From positions 64,001-128,000 of the forward strand of contig CAVULX010000003.1 in the NCBI GenBank assembly GCA_963742415.1: DNA of 64,000 bases, written 5' to 3'. Below are positions 2,701 through 8,843 of this stretch, piece after piece (the first letter of the stretch is position 1; each line of letters starts with the position of its first letter). The stretch is from an uncultured Parachlamydiaceae bacterium. GTDB lineage: Bacteria; Chlamydiota; Chlamydiia; Chlamydiales; Parachlamydiaceae. A program made the position numbers and the translations under genes. The notes beneath the pieces are model-generated. The model was not told the origin of the DNA. It worked only from the letters and a program-made list of their open reading frames with translations, and did no database searches.

Positions 2701-3867
2701 TTAAAAGTTTTGGTTGAGAATTGGGGGAAGAACTTGGAGCAATTCATCCACGCGGCTATCCCAAGTATGGAACTTGCGCACTTTCTCTTTGGCGCGCTCT
2801 GCCATCCTTTTTCGCTCATCTTCATGAGATAAATAATATTCTACTGATTCGTTGACACGACTCCATTGTCCAGGCTTATAGAATACCATATCTTCCCCTT
2901 CGTTGAAATGTTCCCTAGCCCATATTGTGTCTGTCGTGATCATCATGCAGCCGCATGCGGGCCCCATAAAAAGCCTCTCATGAGTGCCGTTTTTAAAAAA
3001 GGGCATACTATTCAAGCAAATTTTACTCCGCCTCATGACCTCGATCCCCTCCTCAATGGGGATTGCCGGATGAACAATGACATTAGAGTTATCGGGAAAA
3101 TAGGAGGACCACCCTTTGACCGCGATGGGGGGGCGGAAGCATGCGCCGCCAAAAATATGAACGGTGGCATTTTTGATTGAACGGATGAGTTCGAGCCGGT
3201 CTGTCCCTTTGATATAGCTTCCGATATAATAAAGGAGTGAAGCGTAGTCGAGATCGGCAGGGTTTGCCTGCAATTCACTCATAGCCCTCTGCAGGGCTTC
3301 CCATTCAGTCGCTTTGGGATTTTCCCAAAATATTGAAAGGGCCAGCTCGATTGTTTTTCGTTGAAGATCGGAATATTTATTCCAAAACTTTTCTAACCCT
3401 TGCGGATCATAGCATGTGCCCAAATAGACAACATCATAGAGCTTCTGTTCTTCAGGAAGCTGTGTCAACTCAACTTCTACGCCATGGCCGAAAAAAAAAA
3501 CTTTCTTGAAGAGCATTTTTTTCAGTTCTTCACACTGCAAGTGATCCACGCAAGATATGAGGAGATTAGGGCGTTGCAAATAAGGAAAAAGGGGAGCGGG
3601 GGGATCTGTCAGGATGCTCCAAAAAGGGATTTTAAACTGTTTCCAAAGCCTCTCTATTTTTGTAAACTGAAAGGGCCAATAGAAAGAGCATAATAAATCT
3701 GGAAGCTGATTTTTTTGTGCTGAAGCAATAGCTACAGGATCTTCTTTTAGAGCATCTAAGAAACGGGTTTTGATCCCTTTTCGATTGAGGGCCTCACTAA
3801 ATTTTTTTGAAAAATGCCTTTTGGTGTCATAAAGATTATTGCCAAGCAAAATCCAAATGTTATCCAT
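2701..3867 (-). CDS. Glycosyltransferase, CgeB-like/GT-B (paralog 3)
   Basis: YDVVYLGT, SKICLNSMPFFKNGTHERLF and HTWDSRV motifs. Confidence 0.8.
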   Translation of the reverse strand: MDNIWILLGNNLYDTKRHFSKKFSEALNRKGIKTRFLDALKEDPVAIASAQKNQLPDLLCSFYWPFQFTKIERLWKQFKIPFWSILTDPPAPLFPYLQRPNLLISCVDHLQCEELKKMLFKKVFFFGHGVEVELTQLPEEQKLYDVVYLGTCYDPQGLEKFWNKYSDLQRKTIELALSIFWENPKATEWEALQRAMSELQANPADLDYASLLYYIGSYIKGTDRLELIRSIKNATVHIFGGACFRPPIAVKGWSSYFPDNSNVIVHPAIPIEEGIEVMRRSKICLNSMPFFKNGTHERLFMGPACGCMMITTDTIWAREHFNEGEDMVFYKPGQWSRVNESVEYYLSHEDERKRMAERAKEKVRKFHTWDSRVDELLQVLPPILNQNF

Positions 3868-5056
3868 TATTTTCGGCCTGTTGTTTCATTTGCTGAATAA
3901 ATGCGGGGATCTCCTCTAAAAGCTGTTCTGCCCGTTGATCCCAAGTATGGTGGAGGAGGACCTTTTCGTATCCACTGCGAACCAACTGCTGCCGCTCCGC
4001 TTCATGAGCCAAAAAATAATTGATTTTATCATTTACTTCATTCCATTTAAGGGTCTCGTAAAGCAGGAGTTCTTTCCCATTGATAAAATTTTCACGGACC
4101 CACAGATTGTCTGTGGTGATAGGAAGAGCGCCGCAGGCTAGGCTAAAGAAAATCCTTTCATGGGTACCATTCTTAAAAAAAGGCATGCTATTCAAGCAAA
4201 TCTTGCTTTGCTTGCAGATCTCCAGAATTTCCCAGTACGGGACTGCAGGATGCACGGTGACGTTGGGGCAATCGAATAAGGCTTGAGCCCATCCACTGAT
4301 GGGGTGTTCATCGCGCCAGCAAGTCCCTCCAAAAACATGGACGGAGGCATCTTTGATTGATCTGATTAACTCCAAACGATCGACTCCCCTCATGTAATTA
4401 TCGACATTCATATAAATTCTGATTTTTTCTTGCTCTGTAAAAGGGATTTTATACTGCAGCAATATATCATCGACAACTTTCCAAAAAGGGATGTCTCTTT
4501 GAGAAAGAGCGATTCTGGCTGCTTCTTCGAAGAGAACGAGCAGCTGAGGGATATATTTGCCTTGCCAAGCTTTTCTAAGGCCTTGAGGATCGTATGAGCT
4601 CCCGAAGAATACAACATCGTAGGGTCGTGGTTGATCTGGAGAGGCGAATAGTTCTTTTTCGATAGCATGTGGAAAGAAGAAGACATTTTTTCCCCCTTTT
4701 TGCTGCAAATAGTAGCAATCGAAACGATCGACGCATGAAATTAGAGAATAGGATGGTTTGACGAGATTGGCATCATAGCAAGCAGGATCAACCAAGATGG
4801 AGAGGTAGGGAATTTTTCTTTTTTCCCAAAAAAATGTTCCATCCTCATTGGGAACGACACGATTGAAAGAGCAGCACAAATCGGGAGGTTTTGTATACTC
4901 TTTGCTTTTGGAATTTGGGAGCAATCCCTCTTTCCTGAAGTCGATAACTCTCGTTTTAACTCCATGTCGCTTTAAGGCATCAGCCAGCTTTAAGCTAAAA
5001 TGTTTTTTTGATTCGTAGAGATTATAGTTATAGATAATCCAAACTTCGTTGAGCAT
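3860..5056 (-). CDS. Glycosyltransferase, CgeB-like/GT-B (paralog 2)
   Basis: Same motifs (SKICLNSMPFFKNGTHERIF, HTWDQRA). Start placed at MLNEVW by alignment with the paralogs. Confidence 0.8.
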   Translation of the reverse strand: MLNEVWIIYNYNLYESKKHFSLKLADALKRHGVKTRVIDFRKEGLLPNSKSKEYTKPPDLCCSFNRVVPNEDGTFFWEKRKIPYLSILVDPACYDANLVKPSYSLISCVDRFDCYYLQQKGGKNVFFFPHAIEKELFASPDQPRPYDVVFFGSSYDPQGLRKAWQGKYIPQLLVLFEEAARIALSQRDIPFWKVVDDILLQYKIPFTEQEKIRIYMNVDNYMRGVDRLELIRSIKDASVHVFGGTCWRDEHPISGWAQALFDCPNVTVHPAVPYWEILEICKQSKICLNSMPFFKNGTHERIFFSLACGALPITTDNLWVRENFINGKELLLYETLKWNEVNDKINYFLAHEAERQQLVRSGYEKVLLHHTWDQRAEQLLEEIPAFIQQMKQQAENNG

Positions 5057-5069
5057 CTGGCATCCGATT

Positions 5070-6245
5070 TTATGTAGGAAGTCTGTTAAGGATATCTGGC
5101 ATTTCTTCCAACATTTCATCGACCCGATTATTCCAGGTGTGATTTTCCATCACCAAAGCACGTCCCCGTTTAGCGATATCGACCCGTCTGGATTCATCAT
5201 GTAATAAAGCATTAACTTTTTCATTTATAAGCCCTCTTTGATTCATACTGTAGTAGATGACATGTTTTTCCTCTTCGAAGAACTCTCTAAAATAATTATT
5301 ATCTGTCGTCGCAGGGACAGCTCCGCACGCGAGACCTGTGAACACCCTTTCGTGTGTGCCGTTCTTAAAGAAAGGCATGCTATTTAAGCAGATTTTGCTT
5401 TGTTTCAATATTTTGAGCGATTCAGCAAAAGGGACTGAAGGGTGAAGTAAGACGTTTTTTTGAGAACCAAGATAGTGCTTCCAACTGAGAACGCCTACAG
5501 CCATATCGGTTGATAGCTCCCCAAAAACATGAATGGGAGCTTCTGTGATAGAATTGATTAACGCCACCCGATCCTTGCCCCGAGTATAGTTGTCGAGGTA
5601 ATAAAAAAGGGCTGCAAAATCTACTGCAGTTGGATCAAGCTTGGAGGCATTCCAGGCATTTAAAAGAGCATCCACAAGAGAAGTAGAATTATCGGAAAAG
5701 ACGATTTCAATAGCATCGTCTAGAGCTTTGTTGATCTCTGCAGGATATTGTTGCTGCCATGAGGCGCGCAAGCTCTCATAGTCATAGCAAGTGCCTAGAA
5801 AAACCACATCATAAATCCTTTTTTCATTTCCCGGATTGAGCTCCGGCTCCACGGCATGGGGGCAAAAAAAGGCATTTTTAAATTGATAGGAATGGAGCTG
5901 GATTAAATCAGAACGGTCTACACAGGAAAGGATTGTATAGGGACTGCGGGTGAGGTGGACAGAATAAAGGACGGGGTCTACTAAAATTGACCAATGGGGA
6001 ACCTCTAGAAAATCGCAAAGGAACTTTGTTTCTGAAATAGGGAGAAGGGCGTTGAAGGAACAAGTTAAATCGGGGTTAAAATGTCGGATGGTGTTCATCG
6101 TGTCGGAAGCGATTGAAGCTTCATTGACATCGATAACCAGTGTTTCGATCCCTTTTCGTTTCAAGGCATCTGCAAGTTTGCTGGTAAAATAACGTTTGGA
6201 TTCATAAAGATTGTAATTGACGATCAAGCATATTCTATTCAGCAT
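5070..6245 (-). CDS. Glycosyltransferase, CgeB-like/GT-B (paralog 1)
   Basis: Same motifs (SKICLNSMPFFKNGTHERVF, HTWNNRV). Start placed at MLNRIC. Confidence 0.8.
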   Translation of the reverse strand: MLNRICLIVNYNLYESKRYFTSKLADALKRKGIETLVIDVNEASIASDTMNTIRHFNPDLTCSFNALLPISETKFLCDFLEVPHWSILVDPVLYSVHLTRSPYTILSCVDRSDLIQLHSYQFKNAFFCPHAVEPELNPGNEKRIYDVVFLGTCYDYESLRASWQQQYPAEINKALDDAIEIVFSDNSTSLVDALLNAWNASKLDPTAVDFAALFYYLDNYTRGKDRVALINSITEAPIHVFGELSTDMAVGVLSWKHYLGSQKNVLLHPSVPFAESLKILKQSKICLNSMPFFKNGTHERVFTGLACGAVPATTDNNYFREFFEEEKHVIYYSMNQRGLINEKVNALLHDESRRVDIAKRGRALVMENHTWNNRVDEMLEEMPDILNRLPT

Positions 6246-6375
6246 AAGCCCCCTATTAGGTTGCTTCACTTGAAAAGCATGAATACCCTCTTATTGGCTA
6301 TCCTAGCTTTAATTTTATAATTTTCGACTTTATCTTTAAAATTAAAATTTTAGTATATGGAAGAATTATTATTTA

Positions 6376-6593
6376 TAATGTATACCCAAACGACTTGAAA
6401 AATCGGAATTTAGGCTTAAGCGAAAGCCTAAAACTGATTTTTCAAGTCGTTTGGGTATAAGTTGAAAATTTCTGCGTAATCAAGTTTAAAAACCTCTGTG
6501 TCCTCTATGATCTCTGTGGTTGAATTTTAACAAACCACGGAGATCACAGAGAACACAGAGAGACAATAAATTTAATTTTTTGCAACTTACGTT
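6376..6593. mobile_element. MITE copy A (termini TAATGTAAGTTG...CAACTTACGTT) with an internal CTCTGTG/CACAGAG hairpin; left terminus interrupted by a second element
   Basis: Near-identical inverted copy at 7787-7922. Has terminal inverted repeats. Confidence 0.75.
6381..6459. mobile_element. 79-bp palindromic miniature element with ERIC-like ends (TATACCC...GGGTATA), inserted at a TA
   Basis: TATACCCAAACGACTTGAAAAATC pairs with GATTTTTCAAGTCGTTTGGGTATA. Removing the element plus one TA restores TAATGTAAGTTGAAAAT, which matches the end of MITE copy B. Confidence 0.8.
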
Positions 6594-7750
6594 TGTGATA
6601 AATTTAAAAAAGAGGCATTCAGATACTCTCGATATTTGTTGTTGTTATTGCGAATAGTTTGAGCGGTGATCCGTTTTTTCATAGCTATATCTGATGCATT
6701 TGTAAAATTGTTTTTTTCGCCAAAATCACGTCTCCACTCATAAAATGTTAAAGGACGAGTAATAGTTGGGTTTTGTTTTCCACACTTGGCTTCATATAGG
6801 TCAAAAACTCTTTTGGAGAGCTCATTGTCAGATTGTTTTATCCTTTCCCGAGATCGAGCAGCAGTAATGCGGTTTTTTGCTTTTCTTCTTTCAATTCTAT
6901 CAATCGTTTTAACGCCCGAGACCCTTTCACTTTTTACATTACTTCTCGGCACAGGGCTAGAGTTCCAATCTTTCGATTCTTTTTTTTCTAAGAATACTCT
7001 TGTTATATCGCTGCCATTATCATTAAAATCATGTTTATTTTCTTCTGTAGATTGACTTCTATTATCATCTTTTGACGCTTGAAAAAAAATTTCAAGGGAA
7101 GGGGGCAAATCATTGCTTTTCATTAACTTTGTACATAAGTTTTCGAGATACTTCTGATAGTTGTTGCTATTTTCACGATAAGTTTTAGCCGTGATCCGAT
7201 TTCTCTCTCGTCTGCTTTTTATATTTGTTAAATCGCTTTTCTTGCCAAATTTTACTTTCCAATCCTCATATATTAATGGTTTTAAAGAATGAGCAAAAGT
7301 TGGGTTTTGTTTTTCTATAGATTCAAATAATTTAAAAATATTTTTGATGCGTTCATTAACATATTGCCTTTTCTTTTTCCGAGATCTAGCAGCTGATAAA
7401 CAATTTCTTTTTCTTTTTTCACTTCTTTGAATCTGTTCAGATGAGTCGCTTTGATTGCGTGTACGCTCTTGGCTTCGAGGCGTATCTTGTGATTCTATTG
7501 TTATTTTTCTTTTTTGTTCTTCTATTTCTATATTTTTTGTTTCAGTAATAGTAGGCAAATCCATCGACATATTTGTTGTTTGGAACAAATCTGTTAGATT
7601 TCTACCGAAACCAACATTTAAATTATGTTCATTTGTTTCTAAGGATGCATATATGACATCATCATGAAAATTGTCATCATCTACGTCAGTAGAAAAAGTT
7701 TGAAGAGGTGGCTGATAAATCAATATGTGTTTGTCTAAAAACAGAGACAT
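6587..7750 (-). CDS. Hypothetical protein with four bZIP-like basic regions (candidate nuclear effector)
   Basis: KRKRNCLSAARSRKKK, RRERNRITAKTYRE, RRKAKNRITAARSRER and MKKRITAQTIRN, arranged as two duplicated units. AT-rich. Confidence 0.7.
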   Translation of the reverse strand: MSLFLDKHILIYQPPLQTFSTDVDDDNFHDDVIYASLETNEHNLNVGFGRNLTDLFQTTNMSMDLPTITETKNIEIEEQKRKITIESQDTPRSQERTRNQSDSSEQIQRSEKRKRNCLSAARSRKKKRQYVNERIKNIFKLFESIEKQNPTFAHSLKPLIYEDWKVKFGKKSDLTNIKSRRERNRITAKTYRENSNNYQKYLENLCTKLMKSNDLPPSLEIFFQASKDDNRSQSTEENKHDFNDNGSDITRVFLEKKESKDWNSSPVPRSNVKSERVSGVKTIDRIERRKAKNRITAARSRERIKQSDNELSKRVFDLYEAKCGKQNPTITRPLTFYEWRRDFGEKNNFTNASDIAMKKRITAQTIRNNNNKYREYLNASFLNLSQT

Positions 7751-7786
7751 TTTGTTTATCCTGAATTTTTAAAATTAATATTATTT

Positions 7787-7922
7787 TAACGTAAGTTGCA
7801 AATAATTAAATTTATTGTCTCTCTGTGATCTCTGTGAACTTTGTGGCTGAATTTTAATAAACCGCAGAGATCACAGAGGTTTTTTAAACTTGATTACACT
7901 CAGTAATTTTCAACTTACATTA
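7787..7922. mobile_element. MITE copy B, inverted relative to copy A, bounded by TA at both ends
   Basis: TAACGTAAGTTGCAAAT...ATTTTCAACTTACATTA. Its reverse complement aligns with 6458-6593. Confidence 0.75.
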
Positions 7923-8048
7923 TTTTAAGAGAGAAATTAAAACTACTATTCAAAAGCTCCAAAAATTATTTCGAATGCATCTATTTTTTTCTTAGCAGGT
8001 TGACAGGATTTTATTCCATGACAATTTCACAATCATATTGGTGATCGC

Positions 8049-8843
8049 CTAATGAAACATTTGGACATTCATATCGGGAACAACAGTCAACGAAGGGTGC
8101 ACTTTTGCACGCAAAACTTGCTGGATATAAGATAGCGTTGTTCCAATAGCGGAATAGCAAGAAGTGCAATTCCCCTGGTAGGCAATAACAACTTCCTTGT
8201 CTTCGAGAAGATTTAAAACCTCAACTCCGCCAGCATCTAAGGCGATATAAGGGCGGACATCACTGTCGAGCACTTGTTCTATCACAGCAATTTTTTTCTT
8301 GAGGGGAAGATCGGCCCAGCCGGGATATCCCCCCTCGACAACCTCTCCTATCCCTGCTGGAACAGGGGGGGCCACGTACGTGTCAGCAAAAGGGATATCT
8401 AAGCATTGTTGGGATGCGGCATCAATAGCTCCTAAAACGAGGTTCAAATGGGGATAAGTTTCTTTAGGAAAAGCGGGCTCATCGGAACGATCTCTCAGGT
8501 GCCGATCGATTAAGTCGGTGCTGACCCGTTTGGCCTGGTCATAATTTTTTCCGATTACAATTTCGCAGACAGCTTCTGCGGCTCCAATGAGCGCTGATTG
8601 CCCCAGCACTTGAAATTTGGCATCGACGATAATTCCATCATCTTTGTCGACCAACCAATAGATACGGACGCAATTCCCTTCCTCTATTTTTCCTTCTGTG
8701 CCTTGGGCAAGGCGCATGTTTCGAGCTTCCGATTCTTCCTTGGTGAAAATCCCTGCGTTCCGAGGGTTATCGATGCGAGAGATCAGCTTTTTGCTATATC
8801 GCGCCCAAGGAAATGGTGTTGTCAAAGCCTCCAAGCCCCCCAT
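8049..8843 (-). CDS. nifU: NifU-like protein (degenerate IscU-like N domain plus NfuA-like C domain)
   Basis: YSKKL..DNPRNAG..IIVDAKFQ at the N terminus. VRPYIALDAGGVEV..YQGNCTSC (CxxC) at the C terminus. Confidence 0.85.
   Translation of the reverse strand: MGGLEALTTPFPWARYSKKLISRIDNPRNAGIFTKEESEARNMRLAQGTEGKIEEGNCVRIYWLVDKDDGIIVDAKFQVLGQSALIGAAEAVCEIVIGKNYDQAKRVSTDLIDRHLRDRSDEPAFPKETYPHLNLVLGAIDAASQQCLDIPFADTYVAPPVPAGIGEVVEGGYPGWADLPLKKKIAVIEQVLDSDVRPYIALDAGGVEVLNLLEDKEVVIAYQGNCTSCYSAIGTTLSYIQQVLRAKVHPSLTVVPDMNVQMFH

Follow-up and report, generated by a model that had tools for sequence, protein, structure and literature searches.

A chlamydia-like bacterium encodes a protein with two pairs of bZIP-type basic regions, a possible single-chain mimic of host transcription factors

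Introduction

The DNA considered here is a stretch of 64,000 nucleotides (nt) from an uncultured Parachlamydiaceae bacterium (assembly GCA_963742415.1, contig CAVULX010000003.1, positions 64,001 to 128,000 of the forward strand). We refer to this stretch, at its full length, as the window, and all coordinates are in window numbering unless a contig position is named. On its minus strand, at 6587-7750, lies an open reading frame (ORF) whose 387-amino-acid (aa) product carries four segments of the kind that eukaryotic basic leucine zipper (bZIP) transcription factors use for contacting DNA, arranged as two units of two. Judged from its sequence, the protein is very probably a bZIP-type DNA binder, one that passes the test of the bZIP hidden Markov models (HMMs) but is not a canonical bZIP. 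The reading that we favour goes further and has, in our estimation, about an even chance of being correct: the gene encodes a true bZIP-type protein of eukaryotic ancestry in an obligate intracellular chlamydia-like bacterium, and this protein is secreted and imitates a transcription factor of the host nucleus, with tethering in place of the zipper.

Results

bZIP-type basic regions

The first-pass annotation of the window, made from the letters alone, had made its interpretation depend in part on a match to the bZIP HMMs. Such matches were found with both Pfam models. The whole protein scores 47.7 bits against bZIP_2 (PF07716; E = 1.6e-12) and 41.8 bits against bZIP_1 (PF00170), in three stretches each, and exceeds the respective curated Pfam gathering scores of 22.3 and 27.6 bits, which are used as cut-offs throughout. 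Within the profiles, it is the basic-region half (positions 5-42) that is matched, and not the half that describes generic coiled coils. Taken alone, segment 3 scores 30.5 bits against bZIP_2 (29.3 bits in the genome-wide scan) and segment 2 scores 23.5 bits, both above the cut-off of this model; their bZIP_1 scores of 25.8 and 22.9 bits lie below the cut-off of the other.

The basic region of bZIP proteins has the consensus N-x2-(A/S/T)-A-x2-(S/C/aromatic)-R. This DNA-contact signature is present at aa 116, 184 and 293, and at aa 359 a K replaces the N. In segments 2, 3 and 4 the R-x9-L spacing to the first heptad leucine is kept, with L at +10. The genome has 2568 ORFs of 100 aa or more, with 825,845 residues in total. 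Across these, the pattern N..[AST]A..[SCY]R, which was written after the protein had been seen and is hence post hoc, has four matches, three of them in this protein; when the x9-L spacing is added to the pattern there are two matches genome-wide, both in this protein.

The zippers that follow the basic regions are short. Their heptad d positions read R,L,Q in segment 1, L,L,P in segment 2, L,L,K in segment 3 and L,L,end in segment 4, and each zipper contains at most two heptad leucines before it meets P, PP, K-Q-N-P or the stop codon. A zipper long enough to dimerise, which would comprise several heptads, is absent from all four segments. We therefore file the protein as a bZIP variant and not as a canonical bZIP, and zippers of two heptads look too short for free dimerisation.

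Comparison with solved structures was made with a profile of 12 chlamydial basic-region segments, four from this protein and eight from other chlamydial ORFs (see below). Solved bZIP chains make up 17 of its 18 matches in the PDB, with ATF-2 as the best (E = 2e-7), followed by CREB, TGA7/TGA3, Jun, GCN4, BACH1 and JunD; the remaining match is to a leucine-rich-repeat protein and is spurious. A search of ESM-Atlas features likewise returned bZIP clusters for all ten of the best ten family-bearing matches, at scores of only 0.77-0.82, and is regarded as a lead only.

Internal duplication

The two units are an internal duplication: aa 101-213 and aa 276-387 align with 43% identity over 98 aa (BLASTP, E = 1e-21). 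Between the paired basic regions of each unit stands a linker with the motif P-L-x4-W-x3-F-G-x-K, which occurs twice in the protein, at aa 158-171 and aa 333-346. Alignment of the units identifies basic region 4 as the homologue of basic region 2. The invariant columns are concentrated in the basic cores, in a KQNPT turn, in the linker motif and in the Y-x2-Y-L start of the second zipper, and the residues retained by both units are N, A-A-R-S-R, R-I-T-A-x-T-x-R, KQNPT, P-L, W and F-G-x-K. The units have diverged to 43% identity and nevertheless keep the DNA-contact signature and the linker motif, which we interpret as an indication of long purifying selection after the duplication, either in this lineage or in that of a donor. 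In front of the units, the first 80 of the 387 aa include 15 D+E and have a net charge of -11.

The outline drawn in the first-pass annotation is borne out by these results. It had described four basic segments, three with N-x7-R spacing and a fourth that is degenerate; two units of basic region, linker and basic region, which the duplication and the repeated linker motif now document; short zippers, for which the d positions give two heptads at most; and an N terminus that is acidic and of low complexity.

The DNA of the KQNPT turn (6748-6779 versus 7282-7313) is 88% identical between the units over 32 nt, compared with 43% for the proteins. This local match could reflect constraint, gene conversion or chance.

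Predicted structure

AlphaFold2 modelling of the full-length protein from its single sequence was used for secondary structure only. It gives continuous helices at aa 101-148, 180-211, 280-324 and 352-386, each running through a basic region and its zipper, and values of the predicted local distance difference test (pLDDT) below 50 at aa 1-101 and aa 214-281. Unit A modelled by itself, from an alignment of two rows in which unit B is the only other row, reached a mean pLDDT of 86.7 and a predicted template modelling score (pTM) of 0.67. Its helices span aa 102-148, 150-154, 161-168 and 180-214, and the linker blocks have a pLDDT of 85-93. Unit A is thus predicted to be one compact object with a structured, conserved linker.

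Searches with the unit A model found little that resembles it among solved structures. Foldseek gave no match at E 0.001 or better (best E 3.8, template modelling score at most 0.37), and no solved chain reached Z 8 in VIA-align. Among the matches listed by VIA-align, 48 of 50 cover one helix only; the exceptions are two F-BAR/EFC rows that extend over 85-87 residues at a root-mean-square deviation of 4.4-5.0 angstrom. A plain antiparallel hairpin should match many chains, and since few were found the outcome weakly favours an unusual topology, although fold searches of this kind are no proof of a new fold and do not reveal the orientation of the helices. A complex prediction of aa 100-170 against aa 172-215 yielded a score of 0.02 and a mark of 0.34, which carry no weight in either direction.

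The placement of hydrophobic residues bears on the orientation. Each of the two long helices has a seam of such residues at its C-terminal end, and the register relative to the N-x7-R core is identical in both; for seams placed in this way to meet, the helices have to be parallel. We estimate that crossing back takes ~54 angstrom, a distance that the 31-aa linker can span. The first-pass annotation had suggested that each unit may be a single-chain pseudo-dimer. The compact folding predicted for unit A and the short zippers speak indirectly for this suggestion. On balance we place an intramolecular parallel pseudo-dimer slightly below an even chance.

Orphan status and bZIP-like ORFs in the order

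The protein stands alone in the databases searched. The query itself was the only result both for the whole protein against 5.8e9 clustered proteins (word index) and for aa 278-330 against the same 5.8e9 proteins, where three candidates were scored and no donor lineage could be named. Likewise, phmmer against 1.84e9 cluster representatives, read exhaustively, found only the protein itself. A match was present in none of 60 related genomes, and a scan of 185,579 species genomes produced 59 pattern matches, none of which was confirmed.

Domain matches are sporadic in the order. Scores over the cut-off occur in 6 of 401 genomes for bZIP_2 and in 7 of 401 for bZIP_1, this genome being included in both counts. 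None of 14 control genomes has a match at E 0.001; at E 0.01, bZIP_2 matches below the cut-off appear in two of them. A canonical basic region was found in nine genomes of the order, again including this one. The eight other ORFs (L005, L006, L007, L009, L011, L047, L049 and L050) carry one canonical basic region each, and several (L005 and L047 among them) have zippers of 4-5 heptads. Acidic N-termini, with net charges of -5 to -13, are found in seven of the eight, and the G+C content (GC) of these ORFs lies within about 0.06 of that of their own flanks. Their similarity to the protein described here is limited to 30-75 aa at the basic regions (best E 5e-4). L007 is fused to TPR/Sel1-like repeats, and L009 has another basic stretch that is degenerate. 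The order also yields many more bZIP_1 matches that stay under the cut-off; they were discounted, as they cover only the coiled-coil half of the profile (positions 23-63).

Discussion

Proposed mechanism

In the reading that we favour, each unit would fold on itself. A mini-bundle made of both its short zippers and the small aromatic helix of the linker would hold the two basic helices parallel, and the covalent tether would thereby take over the role that the long leucine zipper has in ordinary bZIP dimers. Zippers of two heptads make stable dimerisation between separate chains unlikely, and a structured covalent tether would compensate for this. In each unit, the basic region ahead of the conserved linker of about 30 aa is of the S-R type and the one after it is of the Y/I-R type; in eukaryotes, different basic-region types are paired by heterodimerisation of two distinct bZIP chains. 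On this reading a unit would be a single-chain heterodimer mimic that clamps one DNA site, and the whole protein two hard-wired DNA clamps on a flexible spacer of 62 aa.

The remaining parts of the protein would serve its delivery and its effect. The N-terminal ~100 aa, which are acidic, hydrophobic and disordered, would supply a type III secretion signal and, once in the host nucleus, may offer a surface like that of an activation domain. Basic region 1 has two K/R clusters, KRKR (aa 112-115) and KKKR (aa 125-128), which resemble the consensus of a bipartite import signal and could double as a signal for nuclear import. Neither a Sec-type signal nor a membrane segment was recognised in reading the protein sequence. 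In the nucleus of its host, a protist, the protein would switch genes on or off.

The genome provides a suitable setting. It is of the amoeba-symbiont type, measures 2.69 Mb in 4 contigs with a GC of 41-42% and carries two FHIPEP (SctV/FlhA-type) export-gate genes (842 and 722 bits), the only type of apparatus gene that was searched, together with genes for the histone-like Hc1 (68 bits) and for four TLC nucleotide transporters. Such genes characterise chlamydiae that live obligately inside cells and possess a type III system, and they agree with the chlamydial setting that had been presumed at first sight of the sequence. A match to Chlam_OMP6 of 21.5 bits is below the threshold and was not used. 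A host-directed role is also favoured by the acidic N terminus, which recurs in seven of the eight other bZIP-like ORFs, and the low GC of the gene, its orphan status and its place at a synteny break between two MITE-like repeats (see below) mark it as foreign or accessory, in keeping with the favoured reading. Secretion, nuclear import, DNA binding and any effect on the host are what we infer from all these features, and we give export and nuclear location together a little more than an even chance.

A bolder version of the mechanism would make the protein a natural single-chain bZIP in which a structured crossover linker of ~30 aa replaces the zipper and keeps two different basic helices parallel, with two clamps per chain, injected in order to rewrite the transcription of the protist host. 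We consider this version rather unlikely. If it were correct, the protein would be the first natural tethered bZIP pseudo-dimer and the first member of a sporadic and so far unreported group of nuclear effectors of the bZIP type in Chlamydiales. In textbooks, bZIP factors exemplify proteins that must dimerise, by way of the zipper, in order to recognise DNA; a covalent tether in place of the zipper would, if real, be a new evolutionary solution and likewise a compact, partner-independent DNA-binding module for protein engineering. Mimicry of bZIP-type transcription factors would also join the repertoire of host manipulation by chlamydiae. The whole case rests on one orphan gene and on predictions.

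Several observations weigh against the favoured reading. Segment 1 alone stays below both cut-offs (17.7 bits with bZIP_2, 18.3 bits with bZIP_1) and has an R at the position of the first zipper leucine, and segment 4 alone, in which the invariant N is absent, matches neither bZIP_1 nor bZIP_2. A phmmer search of the single protein against PDB sequences gave no match at E up to 1, and the sole PDB match of segment 3 alone, to C/EBP-beta, is weak (E 4). The full-length AlphaFold2 model is poor (pLDDT 46.4, pTM 0.21), the model of unit A draws on two aligned rows, and the parallel orientation of the helices is inferred from sequence, as the model outputs gave no coordinates or contacts. Because homologues were not found in the searches described above, conservation across species cannot support a function. 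The TAA stop codon lies inside a dispersed repeat, and the present C-terminus may therefore have been set by an insertion and is possibly truncated. Finally, eukaryote-type proteins such as Hc1 act on the DNA of the chlamydiae themselves, so that a eukaryote-like DNA binder need not be exported.

Alternative explanations

The last of these points leads to an alternative that we regard as improbable, namely that the protein is never exported and acts as a regulator or nucleoid protein on the DNA of the bacterium itself, possibly on the repeat that flanks its gene. A precedent is at hand in Hc1, a relative of the eukaryotic histone H1 that is present in this genome and acts on the chlamydial chromosome, and the secretion signal of the protein is a candidate only. 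The flanking repeat is a palindromic element of ~135 nt that resembles a miniature inverted-repeat transposable element (MITE). It has 28 full-length copies in the genome, 26 of them beyond the two at the gene, and some copies show a 9-nt internal deletion; its terminal inverted ends are (A)ACGTAAGTTGCAAAT, and its flanks are AT-rich and TTAA-like. The termini of the repeat read AACGTAAGTTGCAA, and one full-length copy stands on each side of the gene. The repeat ends hold ACGT-centred and TTGCAA-like words whose likeness to bZIP sites was judged by eye only. On the other side, an acidic, disordered N-terminus of ~100 aa, a feature shared with seven of the eight other chlamydial bZIP-like ORFs, has no obvious use in a bacterial repressor. 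The gene is moreover an orphan of foreign composition, whereas core nucleoid proteins are conserved.

A little less probable still is a host-bZIP decoy, that is, a secreted protein whose short zippers pair with bZIP monomers of the host and titrate them or draw them into dead-end heterodimers. Viral bZIP mimics do act through host partners, the protein does have genuine bZIP basic regions as well as heptad leucines, and other chlamydial bZIP-like ORFs with 4-5 heptads (L005, L047) could dimerise in the normal way. In the present protein, however, each zipper offers only two heptad leucines and then ends in P, PP, K or a stop, and canonical partners need a longer one. The linker is also as conserved as the basic regions and is confidently modelled within one fold, which points to an intramolecular arrangement. 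The sequestering of host bZIPs, which the first-pass annotation had offered as one of two roles, thus appears less likely with zippers of this length.

About equally small is the probability that we assign to a functionless passenger: a recently acquired or decaying fragment of eukaryotic origin that was captured between mobile repeats at a rearrangement junction. The gene occurs in one genome only, and its composition is unusual, with a GC of 32.6% (24.7% at third codon positions); a GC as low is found in only 8 of the 1273 ORFs of at least 250 aa, which places the gene in the lowest 0.6% of long ORFs. A repeat element supplies the stop codon, the gene is located at a break in synteny (see below) and basic region 4 is degenerate. 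A passenger would sit less well with the frame of 387 aa, which is intact and provided with a Shine-Dalgarno site, or with two units that have kept the DNA-contact signature and the linker motif at 43% identity.

A chance look-alike, in which a basic, helical, low-complexity protein trips unrelated bZIP models, is highly improbable and is largely refuted by the Pfam scores, the rarity of the signature and the PDB profile matches: bZIP models do pick up coiled coils, as in the many order-wide bZIP_1 matches to positions 23-63 only and the below-cut-off bZIP_2 matches in two of 14 control genomes at E 0.01, but here the matches cover the basic-region part of the profile (positions 5-42) and exceed the cut-offs, the strict signature occurs three times in this protein and once in the other 2567 ORFs, and no control genome matches at E 0.001.

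Relation to known proteins

The protein shares with eukaryotic bZIPs such as ATF-2 (1t2k_D), CREB (1dh3_A), TGA7 (8gyz_A), Jun (1fos_F) and GCN4 (1ysa_C) the basic-region signature N-x2-(S/T)-A-x2-(S/Y)-R, the x9-L spacing in three of four segments and a predicted continuous helix through basic region and zipper. It differs from them in having four basic regions per chain instead of one, two heptads instead of the usual four to six or so, and a conserved, structured linker that joins paired basic regions, and in being encoded by a bacterial gene for which no orthologue was found in our searches.

Binding of DNA without a long zipper is known from Skn-1-type monomeric basic-region proteins and from engineered dimers of covalently tethered basic regions. 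In these, another structural element or a covalent link holds the basic region, as we propose for the present protein. Skn-1 uses one basic region and the tethered dimers are synthetic, whereas the basic regions described here are natural and paired. A natural tandem or single-chain bZIP was not found among the papers that a literature search for it returned, as far as titles and the beginnings of abstracts tell.

Bacterial nucleomodulins and transcription-factor mimics include the TAL effectors of Xanthomonas and the chlamydial SET-domain protein NUE. The role that we propose, of a secreted protein acting on host chromatin or promoters, would be of the same kind. The fold for recognising DNA is a different one, and for this protein secretion and nuclear location are proposals.

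The other bZIP-like ORFs of the order have cores nearly identical to those of the present protein (NRLSAARSR in L047, NRISARKSR in L050) and are likewise distributed sporadically. Unlike it, they have one basic region each, zippers of 4-5 heptads in several cases and a GC that resembles that of their flanks. No chlamydial bZIP protein was found in the literature, judged from titles and the beginnings of abstracts, with most subscription journals outside the coverage; domain tables in the supplements of chlamydial pangenome studies may list such Pfam matches.

A bZIP in a bacterium is as such not new, because Endozoicomonas proteins and prokaryotic Pfam counts are in print (PMC6213907, PMC7017128). 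The portions of these publications drawn upon here give 248 bZIP_1 and 35 bZIP_2 proteins for prokaryotes (PMC7017128) and describe Nach1 and Nach2 of Endozoicomonas as single-domain CNC-type bZIPs close to animal proteins and thought to be acquired from hosts (PMC6213907). The Nach proteins and the present one have in common that a eukaryote-type bZIP is encoded by a host-associated bacterium. By that description they differ from the present protein, which is an orphan in a chlamydia, has four basic regions and lacks a close eukaryotic relative.

Genomic context

The features of the gene and its immediate surroundings are collected in Table 1. The preceding in-frame stop is only six codons upstream of the ATG. 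A promoter scan found 8 sites where 7.7 were expected and was uninformative.

Table 1. Features of the bZIP-type gene and its flanking repeats in window coordinates
Feature	Position	Strand	Remarks
Downstream copy of dispersed ~135-nt palindromic MITE-like repeat	6458..6593		Holds the TAA stop of the gene 4 nt inside
Complete ORF P0001, 387 aa, span including stop codon	6587..7750	-	ATG start; Pfam bZIP_2 and bZIP_1
Unit B, aa 278-387, reaching the protein end: basic region 3 and degenerate basic region 4, each followed by a short zipper, with the linker between	6590..6919	-	
Basic region 4 core KRITAQTIR, aa 359-367	6650..6676	-	Degenerate (K for N), x9-L kept; unit alignment
Linker motif B PLTFYEWRRDFGEK, aa 333-346	6713..6754	-	Sequence alignment of units
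Basic region 3 core NRITAARSR, aa 293-301, then x9-L	6848..6874	-	bZIP_2 30.5 bits alone
Inter-unit spacer, aa 216-277 (62 aa), S/N/D/E/K-rich	6920..7105	-	Predicted disordered; pLDDT
Unit A, aa 100-215: basic regions 1 and 2, each followed by a short zipper, with the structured linker between	7106..7453	-	
Basic region 2 core NRITAKTYR, aa 184-192, then x9-L	7175..7201	-	bZIP_2 above cut-off alone
Linker motif A PLIYEDWKVKFGKK, aa 158-171	7238..7279	-	Predicted helix aa 161-168, pLDDT about 88-92
Basic region 1 core NCLSAARSR, aa 116-124	7379..7405	-	Both Pfam scores below cut-off alone
N-terminal region, aa 1-99, acidic/hydrophobic, low complexity	7454..7750	-	Predicted mostly disordered; charge, pLDDT
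AGGA Shine-Dalgarno-like site, 9 nt 5' of ATG	7759..7762	-	Sequence reading; putative function
Upstream copy of ~135-nt repeat, inverted relative to the downstream copy	7783..7917		Ends about 33 nt before the ATG

The neighbours upstream of the gene, NifU, NifS and a histidine phosphatase, are syntenic in all four relatives examined, and in each of them the synteny ends at nifU. For the nearest relative (L043, genome G374), the genes downstream of nifU correspond to a region at about 974-982 kb of contig C3 of the present genome, the contig that holds the window, and thus lie roughly 900 kb away from it. The breakpoint of synteny in the window lies at about 7920-8050, directly downstream of nifU; dispersed repeats may mediate such rearrangements. 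On the other side of the gene follow three tandem glycosyltransferase-like paralogues (Glyco_trans_1_2; 388, 419 and 399 aa) with overlapping ends, at 2701-6269 on the minus strand, which were not seen beside nifU in any of these four relatives. With NifU and NifS upstream, glycosyltransferase-like genes downstream and the synteny broken at nifU, we rejected a functional link of the gene to its neighbours. Contamination with host DNA was likewise rejected, given the contig of 998 kb, the bacterial genes within about 300 bp on both sides and the flanking repeats, which are specific to this genome.

A second, smaller inverted repeat (6371-6404 and 6436-6469) adjoins the downstream MITE-like copy. 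Its arms of 34 nt are 88% complementary, and it has nine genome matches of 36-40 nt, one of which is its own partner arm at 6381-6417.

Two further groups of ORFs were recorded. At 1068-2627 on the plus strand, three ORFs (222, 127 and 192 aa) of low GC (0.33-0.35) overlap head to tail. Matches to AAA/ATPase_2 occur only in the first of them, and together they may represent a frameshifted gene for a STAND-type ATPase. Just outside the window, at about 52-60 kb of contig C3, three paralogous ORFs (421-446 aa) with similar N-termini are among the 25 long ORFs of lowest GC in the genome and may be another accessory or effector-like family.

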